This document shows positions 5,739 to 61,399 of a DNA stretch of 64,000 nt, piece by piece; positions within the stretch are counted from its first letter, which is position 1; the number at the start of each line of letters is the position of its first letter. Position numbers and translations under genes: made by a program. Source of the DNA: Escherichia phage StefiGeyer_Bas88; the sequence record PQ850628.1; one strand, given 5' to 3'. Below the pieces are notes generated by a model that made no database searches, was not told the DNA's origin, and saw only the letters and a program-made list of their open reading frames with translations.

Positions 5739-6749
5739 ATGGGTGCTGGAGGTTTTCGTAAGAATACTGGAAGAAACAACACCACACTTCCCTACAACGT
5801 TGGGTTTCTAAACAATGTAGAGGATACGGATAAATACAACGTTGCAGTTTATGATGAATTGCAGAAAGTCAGTACAGCAACTAACCAGATGTTCCAAGCA
5901 ATCGACGAGATTCATGAAGAGATAGATGTTCGTATTAAAGCTCTTAATGCAATGAACCTACAGTTTGATGAACTTGAGAACCGAATTACTACAGAGATTG
6001 AAACAGCTATTGCTGATATTCAAACACAGATGGGTAATCTTTCTACTGAAGACATTTGGGATAGAAGCACTAACCCTCCGACTAAACTAGATGGTACAGT
6101 TGCAGGTTTCAAAACTTCTATTGAAGGCAATGATTTAAAGATTCAGACAGTACAAGGTATTGTGAATGAACAAGGACAAGAGATTGCTTTAGTTCAGACA
6201 GAACTTACTGCTCAAGGTACTCAGATTGCCGAAGTGGATGGTAAGGTTACTACTGTACAGAACTCTCTTTCTCAATACATGAGACTAGATAGTTACGAAG
6301 CTACATGGGGTGTCAACTCTTCTGTTAATGGTCAGTATGCTGGTGTTAAACTAACTAACAACGGTACGAACAGCCAATTCCAAGTAACGGCTAATAAGTT
6401 TATTGTTGGTGATGGCAACTCTGGTAACACTCCTTTTGTTTTTGAAGGTGGTAGAGCTAGAATGGAATTCGCTGATATCAAGAATGTCAACATTACAACT
6501 GCTCAGATTGCTAATGCTCGAATCCAATTTGCTCAGATTGATAACGTATGGATTCAAGATGGACAGATTGCTAACCTTACTGCTAACAAAATTACTGCTG
6601 GTTCTATGAGCGGTTCTAACTGGAGACTTACAGTTGGTGGAGATTTTGTTATGGGCGGTACAGGTGGGGCACAGCTGTGGATGAATGGTAACAGGATTGA
6701 TTTCTATGATGGTGGTGGTGCTTTGAGAATTAGAATAGGGAGTTGGTAA
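5739..6749 (+). CDS. tail fibre / fibritin-like coiled-coil protein
   Basis: ATG at 5739 preceded by GGAGG; long heptad-like N-terminal half, Gly-rich C-terminal half. Confidence 0.4.
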   Translation: MGAGGFRKNTGRNNTTLPYNVGFLNNVEDTDKYNVAVYDELQKVSTATNQMFQAIDEIHEEIDVRIKALNAMNLQFDELENRITTEIETAIADIQTQMGNLSTEDIWDRSTNPPTKLDGTVAGFKTSIEGNDLKIQTVQGIVNEQGQEIALVQTELTAQGTQIAEVDGKVTTVQNSLSQYMRLDSYEATWGVNSSVNGQYAGVKLTNNGTNSQFQVTANKFIVGDGNSGNTPFVFEGGRARMEFADIKNVNITTAQIANARIQFAQIDNVWIQDGQIANLTANKITAGSMSGSNWRLTVGGDFVMGGTGGAQLWMNGNRIDFYDGGGALRIRIGSW

Positions 6750-6750
6750 T

Positions 6751-7782
6751 ATGGCATATGGAATATGGTGTCAACCTGTAGGACCGGGGCCAGCCTCTCC
6801 GGCTCCTTTGTTTATCGACAGTGGGAGTACATTCCCTCAGATTAAGAACTCTATTAGTGGGAGTTTCAACTTTAATGGGGGTGGGAGATCTTTCCCTATT
6901 AATGGTTGGGATGGTAGCGGTCAGATAATTATCGTCCCTACTGGATCTCTGTGCTGGCAGTGGGAAGTTCCTCCTAACTTGGTTCCTGATGTTTATTGTG
7001 TTAATAACATTTATGTAGAGAATAACTCCTCTTTCAGAGTTAACTTAAACCAGAATCCCGGAAGTAACCCCCTGTTTGATTGTGGGTTTAACGTTTACCA
7101 AATCTACCCAAGAGCTGACAGAAATTACGGTATTACCTTCTCTAATACAGCTGATTACTTCTCTATCTCTGATGCTGGTGTTGTTGGTCAGTGTATTTGG
7201 GCTTGGCAAGGGACTATAAACGGCGCTTTACAGATTCCTGACATTGGTGGGTTTTATATGCCTAATGCTGTAGTCTTTGCTAACTGGTCTGACGGAGGGA
7301 TTGGCCTTTCTTATACATCTGGAGATAGAGTAATCCGTGTATATCAGAACAGATCTTATAATAACGGAAACTCTAACGAAGGCGGTTCTGTATTTGCTAG
7401 GGTCGCAGTATTCTGTAATGGAGCAGGAGTTCCTGAGCACAATGGTGGATTAAATATTTATTCTCCCGGAACAACTCAGTGTGTGTTCTCTACTAATAGA
7501 ACACCTTTTACTGTTGATAATTTTGTAGGTTCTGCTGGAGGTGATACTGGTATGGCATACCCAATGATACCCCTCTCCTCTGGTGTAGGTGCTATTCGGG
7601 GTAGTGGTAGTGGTTGGTACTATCAGCAAATGAGATCTCATGTAATGACAGGATCTTCTATAGGGACTGGCTATGGTAGGTACATGTTCCAGTGGTCTAC
7701 CAATTATGACCTAGGTTCTAACTCTGCCATTAACATATCAATTCCGGTAATAAATGCGGCTAAAGTTTTTGCGGGTCTATAA
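6751..7782 (+). CDS. tail fibre/receptor-binding candidate
   Basis: Gly/Asn/Ser-rich 343-aa protein within the tail gene block; no enzymatic motif recognised. Confidence 0.3.
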   Translation: MAYGIWCQPVGPGPASPAPLFIDSGSTFPQIKNSISGSFNFNGGGRSFPINGWDGSGQIIIVPTGSLCWQWEVPPNLVPDVYCVNNIYVENNSSFRVNLNQNPGSNPLFDCGFNVYQIYPRADRNYGITFSNTADYFSISDAGVVGQCIWAWQGTINGALQIPDIGGFYMPNAVVFANWSDGGIGLSYTSGDRVIRVYQNRSYNNGNSNEGGSVFARVAVFCNGAGVPEHNGGLNIYSPGTTQCVFSTNRTPFTVDNFVGSAGGDTGMAYPMIPLSSGVGAIRGSGSGWYYQQMRSHVMTGSSIGTGYGRYMFQWSTNYDLGSNSAINISIPVINAAKVFAGL

Positions 7783-40706: not shown

Positions 40707-42710
40707 TTAATGTTTACCTTTACAGTAATCTGAATTACAGATCACCCTGTTTTCTTTGTTTAGTGAGCAAATTTCTGCATCACGCCACGGAATTTGTTTA
40801 TAACAGACCGCACAAAACCCAATTGAAGTCCAGAGGGCTTTTGTGAACTCAGCTGTTCGTTGTCCGTCGTAACTGACAACTGTTTTTCGGAGAGTTGTTT
40901 GCTTTTCTGGAAATGTTTCCGCTTTCTCAGCGGGCACCTCCTTTGGGGCATTCTTTGGACCATAAACAGAGATGGCATAGGTATCGCCACCACGTTTTTC
41001 CAAATAAGAGTTTGGAACATCAGACAGCTCAATATCACCAGAACGTTTAGCTGAACTAGCCATTACAGTCATTCGGCTAAGCATACGCTGATCAACACGA
41101 ACTGCTACTTCAGGGCGACGTGGGTTAGTTGTGTCGACTGCTTTAGTCCAAATGTAACCTTCAGACAATGTAGTGTTAGTCACTTTGTCTTTGATTTCTT
41201 TGGCACAGACATAACAAATATCTTCACCACGAAGTTTACTCATTTCGTTATCAAACTCGAAATCAGTTTTAACATTGCCACATACAGCACAGACACCTAA
41301 AGGAATGTCTTCATCTTCTTCAGACGGTTTGGACAACGCTTCGAAACAGGCCGGATGCCAATATGCTTGGTAAGCGAACACAGCTTTCTTAGCATCTTTC
41401 CATTCAATGTGCTTGTCACAACCGCCACAATCACCATGAGAATGTGATTCCCAGAACTTACGGGTGACTTCCACACCATTCTTAGTGATGAAGGAGTCTT
41501 CTAAATCAAAAGGGATATCATCATCAAAATCAGCGGTGGTGCTTTGAGGCTCCTTATCGGTAGCATCAACAAACAGCCCTGAAGTGAGTACGAGGCGAAT
41601 CATACTGTCCACTTCGGAGATACAAGCAACCGTCCCGCGATACACCACCTTTGGGTTTTCGAGAGCCTTCAAGTATTCACTCTTGGCTACATTATGAACA
41701 TCACCCTCAACATACTCTTGAGCAGCATCATCATAAATATAACCAACCATCTTACCACGGTCAGTGTTGTTGTAAGCGTGGAACTCGTGAGGGATGATAT
41801 CCACACGACCGTCACGACGATACGGAAGACCACGATCGGCAGCCAGTTTATTCTGATCTTCAATCGCTTTACGACGACGAATGTCTCCGCTTGTCACGCC
41901 GGGCTTGTCGTCTTTGTTTCCGTAAATGTCGCTTGTGCTGCTGCTTGACTTGTTTGTCTGTTGGTTCTGATATAGAGAGGAGTTCGAGTAATAGCCGCCC
42001 CAGCGACTCGTTACCGTAAAAACCGGAAGCTTGTGCTCCACCTCTTGAGTCAGAGTCATACGGTTGCCAGACAAATCAAAGATGTATTCAGTTCCCACTT
42101 TACACTCAAAGTGATCATTGATACGGTTCTTGTGTGACTTGGAACGATTAAGAATCCACATCAACATATCTTCTTCAGAAGCACCAAACCAATCCAGACC
42201 ACAACGGGCCAGATGGAAAGGACGTTCATCGTTACGAATGATATGCAGAGTATTGTCTTTGGCGTCATGCCAGATTAAAGTGAACGCACCATCCAACTTC
42301 TGGATAGTCTCTGCTGCGCCGATGGTGTTGATTGAATGACAGATGTTTTCGCTATCAACTTCGAAATTCTTATGATCTGGTAACAGTTCCTGATCTAACA
42401 GTGTACCATTATGAACCAGAGTAATGTCACCATGAGAGAATGGGTGAGCATTTCGAGCATTGACAGCACCACGTGTGGCATGTCGGCTATGACCAACAAT
42501 CCACGATGGAGGAACTACATAGTTCGTAAGCCCCTTAGTAAGATTCGTGTACCCTGTCTGGAGCATGAAGGCATAGGAAGGAAGTGCTTCTTTATAAGAA
42601 AATACTTTTTCATCACCTTTACGCTGACCGAACACACCAGTTGAGTGCTGACCACGGAAGACTCCAGCATACAGAAGCTGGTTGAATACGTCTAAGTCTG
42701 TGGAGGTCAT
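40707..42710 (-). CDS. class-II (Ntn-type) glutamine amidotransferase domain protein with C-terminal zinc ribbons
   Basis: GHSRHATRGAVNARNAHPFSHGDITLVHNGTL matches the GAT-II core; C-terminal CxxC clusters (CGGCDKH, CAVCGN, CYVCAK, CAVCYK); N-terminus is MTSTD, with no Cys at position 2. Confidence 0.55.
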   Translation of the reverse strand: MTSTDLDVFNQLLYAGVFRGQHSTGVFGQRKGDEKVFSYKEALPSYAFMLQTGYTNLTKGLTNYVVPPSWIVGHSRHATRGAVNARNAHPFSHGDITLVHNGTLLDQELLPDHKNFEVDSENICHSINTIGAAETIQKLDGAFTLIWHDAKDNTLHIIRNDERPFHLARCGLDWFGASEEDMLMWILNRSKSHKNRINDHFECKVGTEYIFDLSGNRMTLTQEVEHKLPVFTVTSRWGGYYSNSSLYQNQQTNKSSSSTSDIYGNKDDKPGVTSGDIRRRKAIEDQNKLAADRGLPYRRDGRVDIIPHEFHAYNNTDRGKMVGYIYDDAAQEYVEGDVHNVAKSEYLKALENPKVVYRGTVACISEVDSMIRLVLTSGLFVDATDKEPQSTTADFDDDIPFDLEDSFITKNGVEVTRKFWESHSHGDCGGCDKHIEWKDAKKAVFAYQAYWHPACFEALSKPSEEDEDIPLGVCAVCGNVKTDFEFDNEMSKLRGEDICYVCAKEIKDKVTNTTLSEGYIWTKAVDTTNPRRPEVAVRVDQRMLSRMTVMASSAKRSGDIELSDVPNSYLEKRGGDTYAISVYGPKNAPKEVPAEKAETFPEKQTTLRKTVVSYDGQRTAEFTKALWTSIGFCAVCYKQIPWRDAEICSLNKENRVICNSDYCKGKH

Positions 42711-51443: not shown

Positions 51444-51520
51444 TGGTGCACCCTACAGGATTCGAACCTGTAACCAACGACTTAGAAGGTCGCTGCTCTG
51501 TCCAATTGAGCTAAGGGTGC
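51444..51520 (-). tRNA. tRNA-Arg(UCU): tRNA-Arg, anticodon UCU, CCA encoded
   Basis: Folded by hand: acceptor GCACCCU/AGGGUGC, D-stem GCUC/GAGC, anticodon stem GCGAC/GUCGU with loop CUUCUAA, T-arm ACAGG-UUCGAAU-CCUGU, 3' ACCA. Confidence 0.85.
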
Positions 51521-56289: not shown

Positions 56290-56510
56290 TTGCGCAGTCC
56301 TAGTTTACGAAGGAATCGGCCTAACTTAGTTTCTTGCGTGATAGTGTAAGTAACAGAGTTATCAATCAAGGCTTGTTCTTGAATCGGCGACGGATACCAT
56401 TCACCGGTAAGAATGCACTTACACTCGATTCCATATTTATCGGTTTTTCGATAGGTCATGTTGTTGATGACGTTACGATACATCTTAACTTCTGTTTTCA
56501 ATTTTGGCAT
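56286..56510 (-). CDS. hypothetical small protein
   Basis: 74-aa ORF. Confidence 0.3.
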   Translation of the reverse strand: MPKLKTEVKMYRNVINNMTYRKTDKYGIECKCILTGEWYPSPIQEQALIDNSVTYTITQETKLGRFLRKLGLRK

Positions 56511-56564
56511 GGTGTTTATCTCTTTTTAGTTTCTTTGATTAGTACACTGAATCAATACACTAGT

Positions 56565-56598
56565 AAAAGAAAAAGGCGCTACCCTTTCGAATAGCGCC
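56565..56598 (-). terminator. hairpin terminator
   Basis: GGCGCTA...TAGCGCC perfect 7-bp stem flanked by A/T runs. Confidence 0.45.
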
Positions 56599-56619
56599 TT
56601 ATATGTTCTTTATTGTAAG

Positions 56620-57522
56620 TTATGCAGCTTGTTGGCGTGCTGCCATGATTGCGGCAGCTTTGCGCAATACTTCTTCCTCATCTGCCGCCGCCTTCTCGTT
56701 CGCTTTGACAGTTGAAGCATTTGAGATACGACCGCGAAGGTTAGACAATTTTTCAGTCATTTCGTTGATCGCTTTCTCCATTTCATCAGCGTATGAATCC
56801 AGAGATTCAAGCTCTTTGGCTGAGGCATTGATCAGATAGTCATCGCTGATAGATACAGTTGATGCGGTTACTTTCTTAAGGAGTGAATCAAAAGTTTTCT
56901 TAACTTTGCCTACCTCTTCACTCAATGCGATAGTGTTATCAGAAGATGCACCGTTGCGCTCATCAGCCAGTAAGGCCGCTTCAATACGGATTGCAGCCAA
57001 ACGATCAGTTAAGGCGTAAATATCCTGGCTGAAGTTTTCGCCAACTTTCTGGTTGATTTGGTTGGCAACTGGCACGTTGTCGTTGCAGCCTTTATAGAAA
57101 GCTGGATTATCGACCTGTACATCTTCACCTTTAGCAAAGCGTTCGAAGGAGTTAGACCAGCGGGCACGGTTTTGCTCCATTTTGGTTTTAACCTGTTCCG
57201 GTTTAGCATCTTCTTTCGCTTTCGCTTCACCTTCCAGATTAATCCATTTCTTTTTACCGTTCGCCCCGTCGCTGTTGTACTTGATAGGAGTGAGGAAAGA
57301 GATTGCAACCGCAATCACATCTAAATCACGGTAACGCTCAGTCAGTAAGAAATCTACCGCCCCCTGCAATACATCCAGCTTCTTACCGTTAGCACGGAAG
57401 TGCTGCAAATGACCTAACAGGAAGTTAGAAACATCTTGCTTAATCGCTGCGTTGTTGCTACGGATATTGTTAGCCAGTGCGTTAAAGCCAGATTCGTTAA
57501 CCAGATTGAAAGATTTAGCCAT
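56620..57522 (-). CDS. first gene of the leftward early block, function unknown
   Basis: 300-aa helical protein downstream of the tandem sigma70-like promoters. Confidence 0.4.
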   Translation of the reverse strand: MAKSFNLVNESGFNALANNIRSNNAAIKQDVSNFLLGHLQHFRANGKKLDVLQGAVDFLLTERYRDLDVIAVAISFLTPIKYNSDGANGKKKWINLEGEAKAKEDAKPEQVKTKMEQNRARWSNSFERFAKGEDVQVDNPAFYKGCNDNVPVANQINQKVGENFSQDIYALTDRLAAIRIEAALLADERNGASSDNTIALSEEVGKVKKTFDSLLKKVTASTVSISDDYLINASAKELESLDSYADEMEKAINEMTEKLSNLRGRISNASTVKANEKAAADEEEVLRKAAAIMAARQQAA

Positions 57523-58435
57523 GATAATTTACCTTTTAATTAAAACGCTCTATGCGCCGCTCTCTATGAGCTATTCAAGTCACAATGACTTAACACTAAT
57601 CACTAACTATTAGTAACCAGTGGTAAATCAGGCGGACTTATCAGGAGTTAACCTTGCCGCCTAACTTGCCGTGATGTTTCATCTGGTATCTTTAATTAGT
57701 CGCTATAAACTAAGCCGACCTGATAGCGATGATCAATCATCACAATAAGGCAGTGTGCCCGACTCTAATTAGTTACTTTATTGTAACCGTCGGTAATATC
57801 GTTTACTTTGCTTTCGCTCCCGCCTATCCTTTTATACCAACTCTCAATCGCTAACCATCGCCCACTACGGGAGGTTATTGCGAAAGAGTCATTAGCCGCC
57901 TGATACATTGACGTTTTATATCTTTCAGCAGGTTTACTACATAAACTGATTATGTACGCCATCAATAGTGGCCTCAAATCATTCACTTCGTAAACGTTCA
58001 CACTAAACCTTATTGTTAAATAGCAATTTGCCACTTTTTAACCACTCCCCGCCGCTCTCAATTGAGCGTTAATTAGTCGGACTTGTCTACCCTGATTAAC
58101 TTCTTTCACCGTAGCGCCTTGTTAGCGATGACCGCCGCTACCCTTAACCGTGGGCGATTAGCTTAAGTCTTTGCGTGCACTCGATGAATCCGCTTATCAG
58201 TGGTGACGTTTCCAGTAAGGGATTGTAAAACTGTTTACCCTGATAATTTAGGGAGTTTTACGCCGTTTTATCTGGTATACTTTCCGATGGTTATTATCAT
58301 CAAGTATATTTAACCGATATAGGAGAATGTTTAAATTGTTAAAGAGCGGTAAATCTATCAACGTGCTTTCTCACGTTATGCAACTGTTAGCCGTTGTTAC
58401 GCTGTTCACTTAGCGGTGACTTGCTTAGTGAGTGC

Positions 58436-58468
58436 TCATTATGAATCATCTCGTTTAGCGTGTCAACC
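58436..58468 (-). promoter_or_regulatory. sigma70-like promoter P1
   Basis: - strand reads A-tract, TTGACA, 17-nt spacer, CATAAT. Confidence 0.5.
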
Positions 58469-58604
58469 ACTTTTTTAAATCTTTTTCTCGTCTATTCTTT
58501 CGAATGACCAGTTAATCACGTATTGGATTAACAAGATTGTAAGCGGTTGCGCTTAACTTTCTGATTCATATTTTTAAAGAGCGGTGTTTCTTACTGCTTA
58601 GTGA

Positions 58605-58637
58605 ACATTCTATCAGAGTGTTTCACCTTGTCAACTC
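58605..58637 (-). promoter_or_regulatory. sigma70-like promoter P2
   Basis: - strand reads A-tract, TTGACA, 16-17-nt spacer, TAGAAT. Confidence 0.45.
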
Positions 58638-58836
58638 TTTTTATCATCTTCTTTTATTCTATTCCCTTATCTCGCTTGAATCTTTGCGAAAGGGCAAGAT
58701 GATAAATTGTTAAAGAGCGTTAAGTCTATCGCCGTCTTCCTCGGCGTCATGCCTTGAGTGTTCCCACTCCTTCCAGTTTAAGCCTTTTTACATGATGCTA
58801 ATCATCTATCTGGAAGTGTTCTGTACTGCTGAGATC

Positions 58837-58868
58837 ACATCTTATCATAATGATTCGACGTGTCAACA
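58837..58868 (-). promoter_or_regulatory. sigma70-like promoter P3
   Basis: - strand reads A-tract, TTGACA, then a weaker -10 (TAAGAT). Confidence 0.35.
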
Positions 58869-58926
58869 ATCTTTTTCGATTAATGTATCTTGATAAACTA
58901 GCGACCAGTAAGGCCGCTAACCTATC

Positions 58927-59127
58927 CTAGTTCATACGTTTAAAGGTTAAATCTTTATCTGTACTTACCAGCGATAGCACCGCAATAGATTTGCCTTTAT
59001 CGGCATCTTCTATCATCTCCTTAGCTTGCTGTAGCGTACTACCGACTATTCTCATAATCATGTTAGTAACGTTAATGCTAGTGCAAGTGATTTGTGTGTC
59101 TTTGCTTGAGAAGGTATAGATGTTCAT
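58927..59127 (-). CDS. small early protein
   Basis: GAGGA RBS before ATG at 59127; TTGATA/CATAAT promoter-like pair about 59140..59166 upstream. Confidence 0.35.
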   Translation of the reverse strand: MNIYTFSSKDTQITCTSINVTNMIMRIVGSTLQQAKEMIEDADKGKSIAVLSLVSTDKDLTFKRMN

Positions 59128-59627
59128 TGATAAATCCTCATTATGGCATGGTTGGGAGTTTATCAAGATACACTAATCGAGTTTTTAAAGAGCTAGTAAA
59201 CAAAGTTTGCCTTGAGAGAATCTAGTACACTGTTAAACGCTGATTTCTTTGAAGTATCGACCTTATAGGCCGCTAAATCCACGCATGGAAGAAGAATCGA
59301 CTAGGATAATCAACTAAGTGCCTTATAGTAATGACGCTTGTTAGCACCACTCCTAAGCAAACCTTGTTTTTAAAGAGCAAGGCTAAAAGTCTAGCCTATC
59401 AGGCTTGCTACCGACTGCATAACTAAACCTGAGATTCAAATATAAATCTATCAAGCAAAGAAAGCAATACCTTTTTCTAAAATAATTTCACTTTCTTTTA
59501 GGTATAGATGAGCACGCGCACGAATAACATCAAGGGAGGAAGAAAACAAGCATTATAATCAAAAGCTAGGCATGTAGGAGGCGTTCTAACGAGATAAACA
59601 GGGGCAAGATGTGCAATCACCTTAGAA

Positions 59628-59655
59628 ATGAAAAAAGCGCCTCAAAAGGGCGCTT
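59628..59655 (-). terminator. rho-independent terminator (- strand)
   Basis: AGCGCCC-UUUUGAG-GGCGCU followed by UUUUUU. Confidence 0.5.
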
Positions 59656-59674
59656 AGAGAGTCTTACGGGTTGG

Positions 59675-60001
59675 TTACGGATTGGTGCAAGTGCCGTTAC
59701 CTGATGCTATTTCGTTCATCGACTCATCGAACAACGTCATGCTAGACCGCATCATGTGATCAATAGTAATTTGCTTGCCTGTAGTTTCATTGACTAGCAT
59801 TGCATGCTTGCCATCAACGACACGATGATCATAATCATTCAGGTCAATCAATACTACCTTGCTAGACTTTTTGCCAGTGTCGTAATTGTCCATTAGATAG
59901 GTGCATTGCAGACCATCAAGGCTAGCCTCATTGAATACGGCAGCATGTGACACGGAAGAAACAGCGAACAAGGCAGCACATACAGCTAATTTAATTTTCA
60001 T
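59675..60001 (-). CDS. secreted (periplasmic) protein
   Basis: Signal peptide MKIKLAVCAALFAVSSVSHA. Confidence 0.45.
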   Translation of the reverse strand: MKIKLAVCAALFAVSSVSHAAVFNEASLDGLQCTYLMDNYDTGKKSSKVVLIDLNDYDHRVVDGKHAMLVNETTGKQITIDHMMRSSMTLFDESMNEIASGNGTCTNP

Positions 60002-60106
60002 AATCCAACCCTTACAAGGAACGTGCAACATAAGAAATCATGTCATAGGTAAATAACATGATACAGAAAGCAATCAGGCAATGCAAGAAATATTTATGAA
60101 TCACCA

Positions 60107-60355
60107 TTAACGATCCTCGACGGTTAACAGTTCTTCCAGTGATAGACCGGATTTAACCAGCAAATCACGATATTCGTTAGCATCCATCGGATCAAGGCCG
60201 GACAACCGGGCAATAGTCATGCGTGCATGTGCTGAAGACAAGGAAGCCAAAGCACGGATAGGAATCAGTACAAGCCCATATTTACCGCTGATAACCAAAT
60301 CACCATGCTGGATGCACATATGGGAGTTTATTACGGTTGCAAATGATTCGTTCAC
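60107..60355 (-). CDS. hypothetical small protein
   Basis: 82-aa ORF; start overlaps upstream stop. Confidence 0.3.
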   Translation of the reverse strand: MNESFATVINSHMCIQHGDLVISGKYGLVLIPIRALASLSSAHARMTIARLSGLDPMDANEYRDLLVKSGLSLEELLTVEDR

Positions 60356-61221
60356 TGGATAGCCTCACAATTAGCAAAGTTAATAAAGGTTGTATAAACT
60401 GCTACACCGTCATTGTAAGCAGTGGTAGCGAGTACAGTTTCACTCACATCGCCATAGCTAACGAGATTAGTTACAAACTGTAATTTCTCTTTCTCAATCT
60501 TCTGATATAGAGAATAAGTAACCATGTCATGATCACTATCAGCACGATTTAAATTAATAACCGACTGAATGCCTGATTTCTCACCTAACGGGGTAAGAGT
60601 GACACGCACATCTTTTACGGTTACAGAGTTAAAATGCACCTTCCAGAATGAATCATTACCATCACTGCCAACGTCACGGCAGACCATATCAGGAGCATTC
60701 TTAAACGTGCTAACAAAAGATTGCAGACCAGTAGAAAGAGAGTCTTTTGCCTGAACATTGGTAGCGATAGCACTAACACCGATAGCTGCAACCAGTGCAT
60801 AACTTGCAAGGTTGACAGACTTCATAATCTTACTTGCAATAGAAGGCTTGCTATCTTTCTTCTTCTTGTTCTGAATAGCTTCAACCATAGCAGACAAGCG
60901 GGATAATACTGCGTTAACATCGCGGCAAGATTCAGGCCAATCATTCTGAGTCCAACTATCTAAATTAGCCTGAATGTAACAGTTGATAGCATCTTGCATA
61001 TCTGTAAAACCATTCTCTTTCATTGACTGCTCATCTTCACACTGTAAGGCGTTCGCAGCGGAATCTATGATAAGACAAGCCAGAATGACAGAGTTTTTAA
61101 AGCTGGTACGAGCTTGCTGATTATTCATCCATTGAGAAGGCACACCAACGGAAAGACCTAACGGAGAAAGTACATCATTTGCTTGATTCAAGTATTTAAT
61201 TGCTAACTTTGACATTTTCAT
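60352..61221 (-). CDS. membrane-associated protein with central TM helix
   Basis: 289 aa; central hydrophobic helix SVNLASYALVAAIGVSAIATNV. Confidence 0.4.
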   Translation of the reverse strand: MKMSKLAIKYLNQANDVLSPLGLSVGVPSQWMNNQQARTSFKNSVILACLIIDSAANALQCEDEQSMKENGFTDMQDAINCYIQANLDSWTQNDWPESCRDVNAVLSRLSAMVEAIQNKKKKDSKPSIASKIMKSVNLASYALVAAIGVSAIATNVQAKDSLSTGLQSFVSTFKNAPDMVCRDVGSDGNDSFWKVHFNSVTVKDVRVTLTPLGEKSGIQSVINLNRADSDHDMVTYSLYQKIEKEKLQFVTNLVSYGDVSETVLATTAYNDGVAVYTTFINFANCEAIQ

Positions 61222-61399
61222 TAATCCTTTCGGTTGATGTGAACTACAAACTACAATCGCAACTATATATTAAAGGAAAAACTTGTCAACCACTTATTTT
61301 CAAACTATTTCATAACTCACTGAATTTAAAAGGAATTTAATTTACTAAACTTTCTTACTCAGAGGTACAGCTTACTGACAGAATGTTACTTTATAACAC

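Follow-up and report, generated by a model that had tools for sequence, protein, structure and literature searches.

A repeat that reads as the rRNA boxA signal, behind tandem predicted sigma70 promoters and ahead of a conserved structured leader RNA, in the early control region of a phiEco32-like phage

The repeat that lies between the promoters of the early genes in Escherichia phage StefiGeyer_Bas88 reads, on the transcribed strand, as the boxA antitermination signal of rRNA operons. The analysis covered a stretch of 64,000 nucleotides (sequence record PQ850628.1, hereafter the window), the DNA of a phiEco32-like podophage of the Gordonclarkvirinae, and the region described here is best explained as the stretch that controls the phage's main early operon. 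Judged from its sequence, boxA most likely carries host RNA polymerase through a structured leader of ~830 nt into the early genes. The boxA identity of the repeat is novel here; the promoters themselves are not new: SU10, "like phage phiEco32", is credited in its genome paper with three sigma70 promoters in the spacer that separates genes 120 and 121 (PMC4281155). The phiEco32 and SU10 papers covered, which are those other than the primary papers Savalia 2008 and Pavlova 2012, do not mention boxA, antitermination or a structured leader.

The control region is flanked by, and contains, the following genes and signals:

59635-59655, minus strand: hairpin and T-run resembling an intrinsic terminator (terminator scan), which ends the upstream early operon
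58927-59127, minus strand: ORF of 66 aa (SD GAGGA) within the variable portion of the spacer; SU7 and PAS59 both have it annotated
56620-57522, minus strand: gp124 homologue, the first gene past the leader (300 aa, function unknown, phrog_13018)

The gp125 homologue (59675-60031) belongs to the operon that the terminator-like hairpin closes, and the annotations of SU10 and SU7 carry a terminator at the equivalent place. The equivalent spacer of phiEco32 (72787-74730 of 77554) follows the first early operon (gp128-125). The 66-aa ORF had no match in Pfam or PHROG, nine neighboring proteins scanned against Pfam gave zero family matches, and PHROGs placed the neighboring proteins only in families of unknown function, apart from one "terminase" label. 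The terminal-repeat motif of phiEco32 and SU10 was searched for in the window and not found.

The initial annotation had reported a plus-strand motif that recurs five times in one orientation, and this was borne out. The sequence TTAAAGAGC has exactly five matches in 64 kb, all on the plus strand (58339, 58574, 58710, 59185, and 59370; span of all copies 58339-59378), where 0.82 are expected and none of 100 shuffled sequences reached five. All five copies are matched exactly by TTKTTAAAGAGC, and the repeat reads (C)GCTCTTTAA(A/C)AA on the transcribed strand. The 16-nt core that two copies were said to share (AAATTGTTAAAGAGCG) was recovered within the copies at 58332 and 58703, which are 88% identical over 33 nt (repeat family D2). 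The copies, their neighboring hairpins and the predicted promoters are, in the direction of transcription:

59367-59397, minus strand: hairpin AGGCUAGACUUUUAGCCU followed by boxA-5 (UGCUCUUUAAAAA), an orphan copy also flagged as terminator-like
59182-59193, minus strand: boxA-4 (GCTCTTTAAAAA), an orphan copy with no convincing promoter upstream
58866-58839, minus strand: predicted promoter P_A (10/12), an A-tract followed by TTGACA-16 nt-TAAGAT, in which TG precedes the -10; predicted start ~58832
58730-58746, minus strand: hairpin CGCCG-AGGAAGA-CGGCG, 10 nt upstream of boxA-3 in a boxB-like position; the 42-nt flank folds at -8.3 kcal/mol
58707-58719, minus strand: boxA-3 (CGCTCTTTAACAA), at ~+115 of P_A
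58634-58607, minus strand: predicted promoter P_B (11/12), an A-tract followed by TTGACA-16 nt-TAGAAT, in which TG precedes the -10; predicted start ~58600
58571-58583, minus strand: boxA-2 (CGCTCTTTAAAAA), at ~+19 of P_B
58466-58438, minus strand: predicted promoter P_C, TTGACA-17 nt-CATAAT with an upstream A-tract (11/12), predicted start ~58431
58360-58377, minus strand: hairpin AACGUG-AGAAAG-CACGUU (helix 2, covarying), 10 nt upstream of boxA-1 in a boxB-like position
58336-58348, minus strand: boxA-1 (CGCTCTTTAACAA followed by TTTA), at ~+85 of P_C, the last boxA before the leader

The boxA consensus of the Gammaproteobacteria, GYTCTTTAANA (PMC5725501), is matched exactly by all five copies. 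It has six matches in the window against 0.48 expected, five of which fall on the minus strand of 58337-59378. Furthermore, 19 consecutive bases of the boxA-3 copy (58718; GCTCTTTAACAATTTATCA) are identical to the rrnB leader of Escherichia coli MG1655 and the boxA-1 copy (58347) has 16 bases in common with it; the comparison is a direct reading of the MG1655 leader, a BLAST search against 5,426 E. coli genomes being uninformative for so short a match. Because its transcribed strand reads as an rrn-type boxA, the repeat is taken to be an RNA element and not a small-RNA gene or the regulator binding site in DNA that had been suggested. A sub-threshold Rfam match, Ysr197, falls on two of the copies and possibly reflects resemblance to an rrn leader only; at E ≤ 10, Rfam gave chance-level matches only over 57400-59700.

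The search for the motif in related phages that the initial annotation had called for was run and found four to six copies per spacer in 15 phages. The transcribed strand of these spacers holds the seed GCTCTTT 71 times, the opposite strand only once. The 43 distinct copies were gathered by this seed, which equals positions 1-7; beyond it, position 9 never varies either, positions 8, 11, and 12 hardly do and position 10, the "N" of the boxA consensus, is free (A23/C14/T6). This constraint on the core together with a free position 10 fits recognition by NusB-NusE. The promoter region around the copies is only ~51% identical between genera, and the flanks of the copies are mosaic, with left and right flanks recombined in differing combinations around an invariant core.

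Three of the five copies lie at ~+19 to +115 of predicted sigma70 starts and the other two have no evident promoter. An upstream hairpin was present in 33 of 51 distinct boxA flanks (~65%), compared with 48% among random 42-mers drawn from these loci. None of the boxA copies is followed by a boxC (TGTGTGGG), and a search for a GU-rich boxC (UGUGUGGG, ~20 nt after boxA) found no TGTGTGGG, TGTGTG or GTGTGG on the transcribed strand of 57400-59700. Two further candidates were rejected. The sequence GCTATTTAACAA at 58024-58013, considered as a sixth boxA, breaks the consensus at position 4 and supplies the 3' side of helix 18, a conserved hairpin. The promoter of the phage sigma factor gp36, considered as the identity of the repeat, has an unrelated consensus in phi32 (tAATGTAtA, PMC8948821), and the sole 8/9 match in the region (TAATGTATC at 58881 on the plus strand, within a 32-nt inverted-repeat arm) is at chance level (19 found, 18.9 expected).

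The earlier claim of tandem sigma70-type promoters on the minus strand, aimed leftward at the early genes, agrees with a consensus scan and with conservation in relatives. Each of P_A, P_B, and P_C, as predicted, combines a TTGACA -35, a 16-18 nt spacer, a TATAAT-like -10, conservation and genes on the same strand, and the A-tract described before each promoter is present in all three. The -35/-10 pairs were found again in 14 relatives; P_C is the sole promoter module common to all 15 phages compared and P_A is also present in TH42, TH43, and PAS59. Promoter-like sites are not enriched as a class (seven against 11.2 expected in 56500-61000 in the consensus scan; across the window, 18 sites that score 10/12 or better, with ~26 in shuffles). 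A perfect TTGACA in a site of at least 10/12 occurs just five times in 64 kb, four of them on the early strand (58466, 58634, 58866, and 61289, the last upstream of the gp128 homologue). A fourth promoter had been held possible, and no such site with at least 9/12 and a 16-18 nt spacer was found; the only candidate is TTGATA-15 nt-CATAAT at 59166-59140 on the minus strand, upstream of the 66-aa ORF. The likeness drawn to the promoters at the ends of T7-type genomes is apt as a parallel to T7, but the cluster is not at a genome end, as the position of the phiEco32 spacer illustrates.

Downstream of the last boxA, the spacer is occupied by a conserved RNA whose modeled structure is supported by covariation:

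57523-58335, minus strand: large structured non-coding leader RNA of ~810-830 nt, between boxA-1 and the start codon of the gp124 homologue
57557-57566, minus strand: UAGAGAGCGG, which in the prediction pairs with CCGCUCUUUA of boxA-1 (58349-58340), a helix that would close the entire leader

The predicted fold comprises 244 pairs in 40 helices, with 98.6% of cells in the alignment paired. For the leader, z is -5.9. It contains 78 compensatory pairs, compared with 35.6 ± 3.5 in shuffles and 7-11 in slid controls. The leader is 87-88% identical to those of phiEco32, SU10, and KBNP1711 versus 76-77% for the adjoining coding sequence. G.U cells make up 11.2%, and pairing reaches 98.6% on the transcribed strand versus 87.7% on its complement, both of which argue for selection on the RNA of the transcribed strand. 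Outside the leader proper, helix 2 shows changes on both sides in three out of six pairs with 100% of cells paired (alignment A1). The closing helix 3 (UAGAGAGCGG-CCGCUCUUUA) is present in the alignment fold and in the single-sequence MFE structure, is uninformative on covariation because it is invariant, and has a local hairpin, GCUC-AUAGA-GAGC, as an alternative. The further repeats that had been noted at 57550-58075 are present (CGCCGCTCTC at 57555 and 58050, D15; TTAATTAGTCG at 57692 and 58069, D18), and GCCGCTCTC, which is the UAGAGAGCGG site, and TTAATTAGTCG form parts of the predicted structure.

No conserved ORF was found in the leader. A protein-coding leader was rejected, as the window and TH43 alone have the 89-aa ORF (57765-58034) and elsewhere the longest ORFs measure 21-54 aa and shift in position. 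A sponge of the CsrA type was likewise dropped, with just six GGA in 881 nt. No Rfam 15 family matched the leader at the gathering threshold, the sole match of that rank in the window being a tRNA at 51447, and a nhmmer search with the 15-sequence alignment against 145 loci (including T5, T7, 7-11, and 120 from IMG/VR) found no homologues beyond the kuraviruses. Of the earlier suggestion that the leaders may encode small RNAs, a conserved structured RNA stands; it is large (~830 nt) and lies mostly downstream (58335-57523) of the promoter stretch in which the small RNAs had been placed.

These elements can be combined into a mechanism, for which we infer the transcription start sites, the binding of Nus factors, the Rho sensitivity of the leader and a function of the leader RNA itself. 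Host sigma70 RNA polymerase would initiate at P_A, P_B, and P_C, and each transcript would bear an rrn-type boxA, (C)GCUCUUUAA(A/C)AA, within ~20-115 nt, often just past a hairpin. On the model of rRNA operons and of the CRISPR arrays in Salmonella, NusB-NusE(S10) would bind the boxA RNA and, with NusA, NusG, and SuhB, make a Rho-resistant elongation complex, which would cross the ~830-nt untranslated structured leader and reach gp124 and the genes behind it. Untranslated RNA is a target of Rho, and boxA shields rRNA and CRISPR-array transcripts from it (PMC7665894). The presence of a separate boxA at ~+115, +19, and +85 of the three promoters, the covarying hairpin before the last of them (helix 2) and ~830 nt with no conserved ORF directly downstream argue for this reading. 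Against it, two out of five copies (59193 and 59378) have no convincing promoter and lie behind a strong intrinsic terminator, boxC is missing, the rule of an upstream hairpin is weak (33/51 against 48% of controls) and in Salmonella phage 7-11 the early/middle-gene strand lacks a boxA match over the right-hand 50 kb that was examined. Furthermore, boxA might not be strictly needed because a heavily structured leader may itself resist the loading of Rho.

Four other explanations were weighed. The number of copies, four to six per spacer in every relative, exceeds the need of one antitermination event, and orphan copies with no promoter of their own exist; the many copies on very abundant early transcripts (a P_A transcript has up to three, and the orphans add to them) might then mainly titrate NusB/NusE away from the host rRNA operons and aid host shut-off, the protection of phage transcription being secondary. 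Friedman et al. reportedly found in 1990 that boxA transcribed from multicopy plasmids competes for NusB. Such a sponge for Nus factors, which could coexist with the main explanation, is unlikely given that all three promoters have a copy of their own downstream, which would be expected were each transcript to require modification, that a single boxA suffices for T7 and that a long untranslated leader lies directly downstream.

Antitermination by boxA RNA also accounts better for the orientation of the motif than would a double-stranded DNA site through which a host or phage regulator (an activator, a repressor, Fis, IHF) acts on the tandem promoters. The copies do sit between promoters, their core is invariant and several relatives carry a copy ~47 bp upstream of the next -35. 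The orientation is one-stranded (71 to 1), the distances from copy to promoter vary widely, the motif is an exact match of 11-19 nt to a known RNA signal and in T5-like phages, VEN, and T7 it stands downstream of the promoter at transcribed positions, all of which makes a DNA site very unlikely.

A weak intrinsic terminator or attenuator, formed by a hairpin and CUCUUU and serving to insulate the tandem promoters or to end the upstream operon, is highly improbable. A terminator scan flagged the copy at 59397-59380 with its tail, and ~65% of the copies come after a hairpin; by the features of an intrinsic terminator only that copy qualifies, the rest having no adjacent stable hairpin or U-run. 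The U-tract consists of just three U, broken by C and G, and a terminator tail would have no need of the invariant G1, C2, and C4; the hairpins barely exceed background (65% against 48%), and the copy behind P_B has no adjacent hairpin. The least probable of the four is that the spacer acts mainly as DNA, for instance as a replication origin activated by transcription, with the repeats as incidental recombination joints: the spacer, ~2 kb long, has strong promoters and hardly any annotated genes, if any, which is reminiscent of the promoter-associated primary replication origin of T7, and the repeat flanks are clearly shuffled between phages, but the compensatory changes, the G.U cells (11.2%) and the strand difference in pairing (98.6% against 87.7%) point to RNA, and the exact boxA sequence would be left unexplained.

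Antitermination at boxA offers a testable route for host RNA polymerase through >0.8 kb of untranslated RNA by means of a borrowed rRNA signal and no N-like protein. It would add a layer of elongation control to the phiEco32 model, whose scheme has so far concerned initiation only (sigma70, gp36, gp79). The leader adds a structured RNA, better conserved than the neighboring gene and lacking an Rfam family, in a phage group used in therapy and as a model of transcription. BoxA behind early promoters appears recurrent in unrelated virulent phages, including T7 and T5-like phages; if so, NusB, NusE, and SuhB would be general host dependency factors of lytic phages and boxA a useful annotation mark of early transcription units. 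More tentatively, and with the balance somewhat against it, the phiEco32-like phages might be mimics of an rRNA operon, in which promoters and boxA recruit the rRNA antitermination and RNA-chaperone complex to make a new structured RNA of ~830 nt, with boxA behind early promoters general in virulent phages. The leader RNA, closed by a helix from boxA to trailer, would then perhaps be excised as a stable ncRNA that aids host takeover, and an overlooked strategy to escape Rho and speed early transcription would extend over T7, T5-like phages, VEN, kuraviruses, and phage tRNA clusters.

The closest parallel among known systems is the E. coli rRNA leader, with which the phage shares an identical boxA core (up to 19 nt matching rrnB), tandem strong sigma70 promoters, predicted in the phage, with upstream A-tracts (P1/P2 in E. 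coli), the order of hairpin then boxA at those copies that have a predicted hairpin, and a long untranslated structured RNA downstream. The rrn antitermination complex consists of NusA/B/E/G, SuhB and S4. Unlike the boxB-boxA-boxC arrangement of the rRNA leader, the phage has no boxC and three to five boxA copies instead of one per operon, its RNA product is no rRNA and is without relatives in Rfam, and protein-coding early genes follow on the same transcript. The predicted long-range helix between the boxA region and the 3' end of the structured RNA is reminiscent of the leader-trailer helix (PMC10250234).

Lambda nutL and nutR also place a boxA and a nearby hairpin on early phage transcripts and use host Nus factors, as is proposed here. 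In lambda, boxA is a weaker variant (CGCUCUUA), boxB comes after boxA and N protein is required, whereas the present phage has a full rrn-consensus boxA with the hairpin before it. A lambda-type nut site, boxA followed by an N-binding boxB, was not found among the copies, since the hairpins precede boxA and the nine neighboring proteins lack Pfam matches. Non-rRNA uses of a consensus boxA are also known from bacterial chromosomes: the boxA upstream of Salmonella CRISPR arrays shields from Rho an untranslated transcript that is unusually long (Stringer et al. 2020; PMC7665894), the logic proposed here for the phage, and that of the suhB 5' UTR represses rather than protects (Baniulyte et al. 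2017; PMC5725501). Both are single copies, whereas this virulent phage carries several behind tandem promoters.

Among phages, T7 carries CGCTCTTTAACAA without mismatch at nt 812-824, between A1/A2/A3 and gene 0.3, and thus shares three tandem promoters for host polymerase followed by boxA ahead of the first early gene. T7 differs in having one boxA after all three promoters, a leader of ~110 nt after boxA and promoters ~0.5-0.75 kb from the end, compared with a boxA per promoter, a structured leader of ~830 nt and a cluster behind the first early operon in the present phage. T5 contains a boxA match in its pre-early region, the comparison there covering boxA alone. A consensus sigma70 promoter followed by boxA was found in the early regions of the Proteus T5-like phages PM135 and Stubb (four copies) and of Vibrio phage VEN (three copies at the left end). 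The nearest relatives, phiEco32 and SU10, are homologous (85-95% DNA identity) and share the three published sigma70 promoters in the gp124-gp125 spacer (PMC4281155).

The spacer lies between the homologues of gp124 and gp125 (numbering after phiEco32). The 2.4 kb around it is matched at 85-95% identity by 97 phage records, all from phiEco32-like coliphages (Gordonclarkvirinae), with TH42, TH43 and SU7 as the nearest relatives. The phiEco32 equivalent is a ~1.9-kb gap without an annotated gene between phi32_124 (71887-72786) and phi32_125 (74731-75096); the right genome end is ~2.8-4.8 kb away. In this group, transcription of the early and middle genes runs leftward (PMC8948821). The main features are:

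56620-57522, - strand, gp124 homologue, counterpart of phi32_124
58466..58438, - strand, promoter P_C, TTGACA-17-CATAAT (promoter scan)
58634..58607, - strand, promoter P_B, TTGACA-16-TAGAAT (promoter scan)
58866..58839, - strand, promoter P_A, TTGACA-16-TAAGAT (promoter scan)
59655-59635, - strand, intrinsic terminator of the upstream operon (terminator scan)
59675-60031, - strand, gp125 homologue, counterpart of phi32_125

The initial annotation described tandem promoters facing the early genes, a recurring + strand motif and two further short repeats. A consensus scan found no enrichment of promoter-like sites as a general class; a perfect -35 element with a score of at least 10 of 12 occurs at just five sites in 64 kb, four of them on the early strand and three inside 430 bp. 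The motif TTAAAGAGC is present five times against 0.82 expected, always on the + strand (58339-59378), and a repeat search showed that the GCCGCTCTC and TTAATTAGTCG repeats are both real. Together, these results confirm the earlier observation. The promoter reading is right but not new, as the tandem promoters have already been published for SU10 and phiEco32 (PMC4281155).

Read on the transcribed (-) strand, the motif becomes (C)GCTCTTTAA(A/C)AA and is best explained as a boxA of the rrn type. The rrnB leader of Escherichia coli MG1655 contains ...GCGGCACTGCTCTTTAACAATTTATCAGACAATCTGTGTGGGC, to which the window copies at 58718 and 58347 are identical over 19 and 16 nt, respectively. All five copies match GYTCTTTAANA, the gamma-proteobacterial boxA consensus derived by Baniulyte et al. 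(PMC5725501). The whole window holds six matches to this consensus (0.48 expected). Two sub-threshold Rfam matches to Ysr197, Yersinia sRNA 197 (58697-58735 and 58329-58405, - strand; E = 0.58 and 4.3), also fall on boxA copies, and this model may stem from an rrn leader. A reading of the repeat as a promoter for the phage sigma factor gp36 was rejected, the gp36 promoter (tAATGTAtA; PMC8948821) being unrelated to it.

Spacers from 14 relatives, which represent four genera or groupings, were turned to the direction of early transcription and compared. Every phage compared carries 4-6 boxA copies, and the main copies are each preceded by a TTGACA-type promoter. The 7-nt seed occurs 71 times on the transcribed strand versus once on the opposite strand. 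Beyond the seed, position 9 is invariant among 43 distinct copies and position 10, the N of the consensus, is A, C or T. The promoter/boxA region of the window is only ~51% identical overall to that of phiEco32, SU10 or KBNP1711. Because their left and right flanks are combined differently from phage to phage, the boxA copies seem to double as recombination joints linking promoter modules; it is by exactly such a junction that the two upstream copies of the window differ from the single copy of TH43.

Within the window, boxA follows the predicted transcription starts at about +115 (P_A), +19 (P_B) and +85 (P_C). A hairpin (58377-58360), three of whose six pairs show compensatory changes, lies 10 nt before the last boxA, and the P_A-linked copy is a paralogue of this module (hairpin, then GAUAGAYUUAMC, then boxA). 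An upstream hairpin is not universal (33 of 51 boxA flanks versus 48% of controls), and no boxC follows any boxA on the transcribed strand around the spacer. The copies at 59193 and 59378 have no convincing promoter and sit after the intrinsic terminator that ends the upstream operon. A further promoter with a perfect -35 (TTGACA-16-TATAGT, 61289..61262, - strand) upstream of the gp128 homologue (60352-61221) agrees with the published first early promoter, and no boxA was found after it.

The variable part of the spacer also contains a 66-aa ORF (59127..58927, - strand) flanked by the arms of a 32-nt inverted repeat (58876-58907 and 59149-59180, 88% complementary). If both arms were on one transcript, they would pair into a long stem enclosing the ORF; they could be a site for RNase III-type processing or else mark the two ends of a small inserted cassette. 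As a gp36 promoter, the TAATGTATC within one of the arms does no better than chance.

Untranslated transcripts are targets of Rho, and Nus factors bound to boxA shield rRNA and long CRISPR-array transcripts from it (PMC7665894). In the window, a consensus boxA stands behind each of the strong tandem promoters, and a long, untranslated, structured RNA comes next, ahead of the first gene; this layout fits the same logic. Judged from sequence, conservation and analogy, as are all functional assignments made here, the boxA copies probably serve rrn-type, N-independent antitermination. Ranked below antitermination are a sponge for Nus factors, the DNA-binding site of a regulator, weak intrinsic terminators and an element acting only at the DNA level, for example a replication origin.

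The most interesting object here is the large structured leader fed by the boxA elements (57523-58335, - strand), in which ~830 nt separate the last boxA from the gp124 start codon. No ORF in it is conserved across the relatives. The leader is 87-88% identical to those of phiEco32, SU10 and KBNP1711, as against only 76-77% for the adjoining gp124 coding sequence. A consensus fold of 15 sequences (RNAalifold) predicts 244 pairs in 40 helices, with 98.6% of cells paired. Changes on both sides occur at 78 of the predicted pairs, compared with 35.6±3.5 in column shuffles (0 of 500 reached 78) and 7-11 in slid controls. As 11.2% of cells are G.U and the complement would pair just 87.7%, the transcribed strand is the structured one. 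Folded alone, the window leader reaches -253 kcal/mol (z = -5.9). With no matching Rfam family, and no match of an HMM of the alignment outside the kuraviruses among the comparison loci searched, the leader seems to represent a new, large and structured phage RNA. Both consensus and single-sequence folds pair the CCGCUCUUUA of the last boxA with UAGAGAGCGG (57566-57557), a predicted, invariant helix that would close the whole leader. The alternative is a local hairpin (GCUC-AUAGA-GAGC), favored by one compensatory change in PAS59. The motif (A)CUAAUUA(A/G), which is the TTAATTAGTCG repeat, occurs three times (58073, 57770 and 57698) in predicted single-stranded stretches immediately 3' of helices; TH42, PAS59 and EK010 retain it only in part. 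Another large phage RNA is annotated in T5, the 719-nt stable RNAX (40848-41566) behind promoter P16-17; an HMM search found no sequence similarity between it and the kuravirus leader, and no consensus boxA lies near it.

A full-text literature search, with the two primary phiEco32 papers outside its reach, found no paper that ties boxA to phiEco32, lytic phages or T7 early transcription. In Salmonella phage 7-11, whose authors state that the antitermination strategy "remains to be defined" (PMC8948821), no boxA was found on the early/middle-gene strand within the 50 kb examined. The exact 16-mer GCTCTTTAACAATTTA matches at least 120 IMG/VR contigs, and only a handful of those listed are host rrn leaders. 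In four of these loci (L085, L115, L127 and L141) a putative tRNA-gene 5' end lies ~15-25 nt after GCTCTTTAACAATTTA, which suggests that boxA also heads phage tRNA clusters. In the T5-like Proteus phages PM135 and Stubb, the pre-early region adjoining the A2 gene contains four boxA copies in ~1 kb (6053-7045 in PM135), and three of the four come shortly after promoters that score 11-12 of 12 against the sigma70 consensus. T5 itself has one match (4988, - strand) in the first-step-transfer/pre-early region. Vibrio phage VEN has three copies at its left end (682-1290), each preceded by a TTGACA promoter, and in T7 a perfect CGCTCTTTAACAA (nt 812-824) lies between the A1/A2/A3 promoters and gene 0.3. 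A consensus boxA directly behind host-type early promoters is found in T7 as well as in unrelated phages of T5-like and T7-like type.
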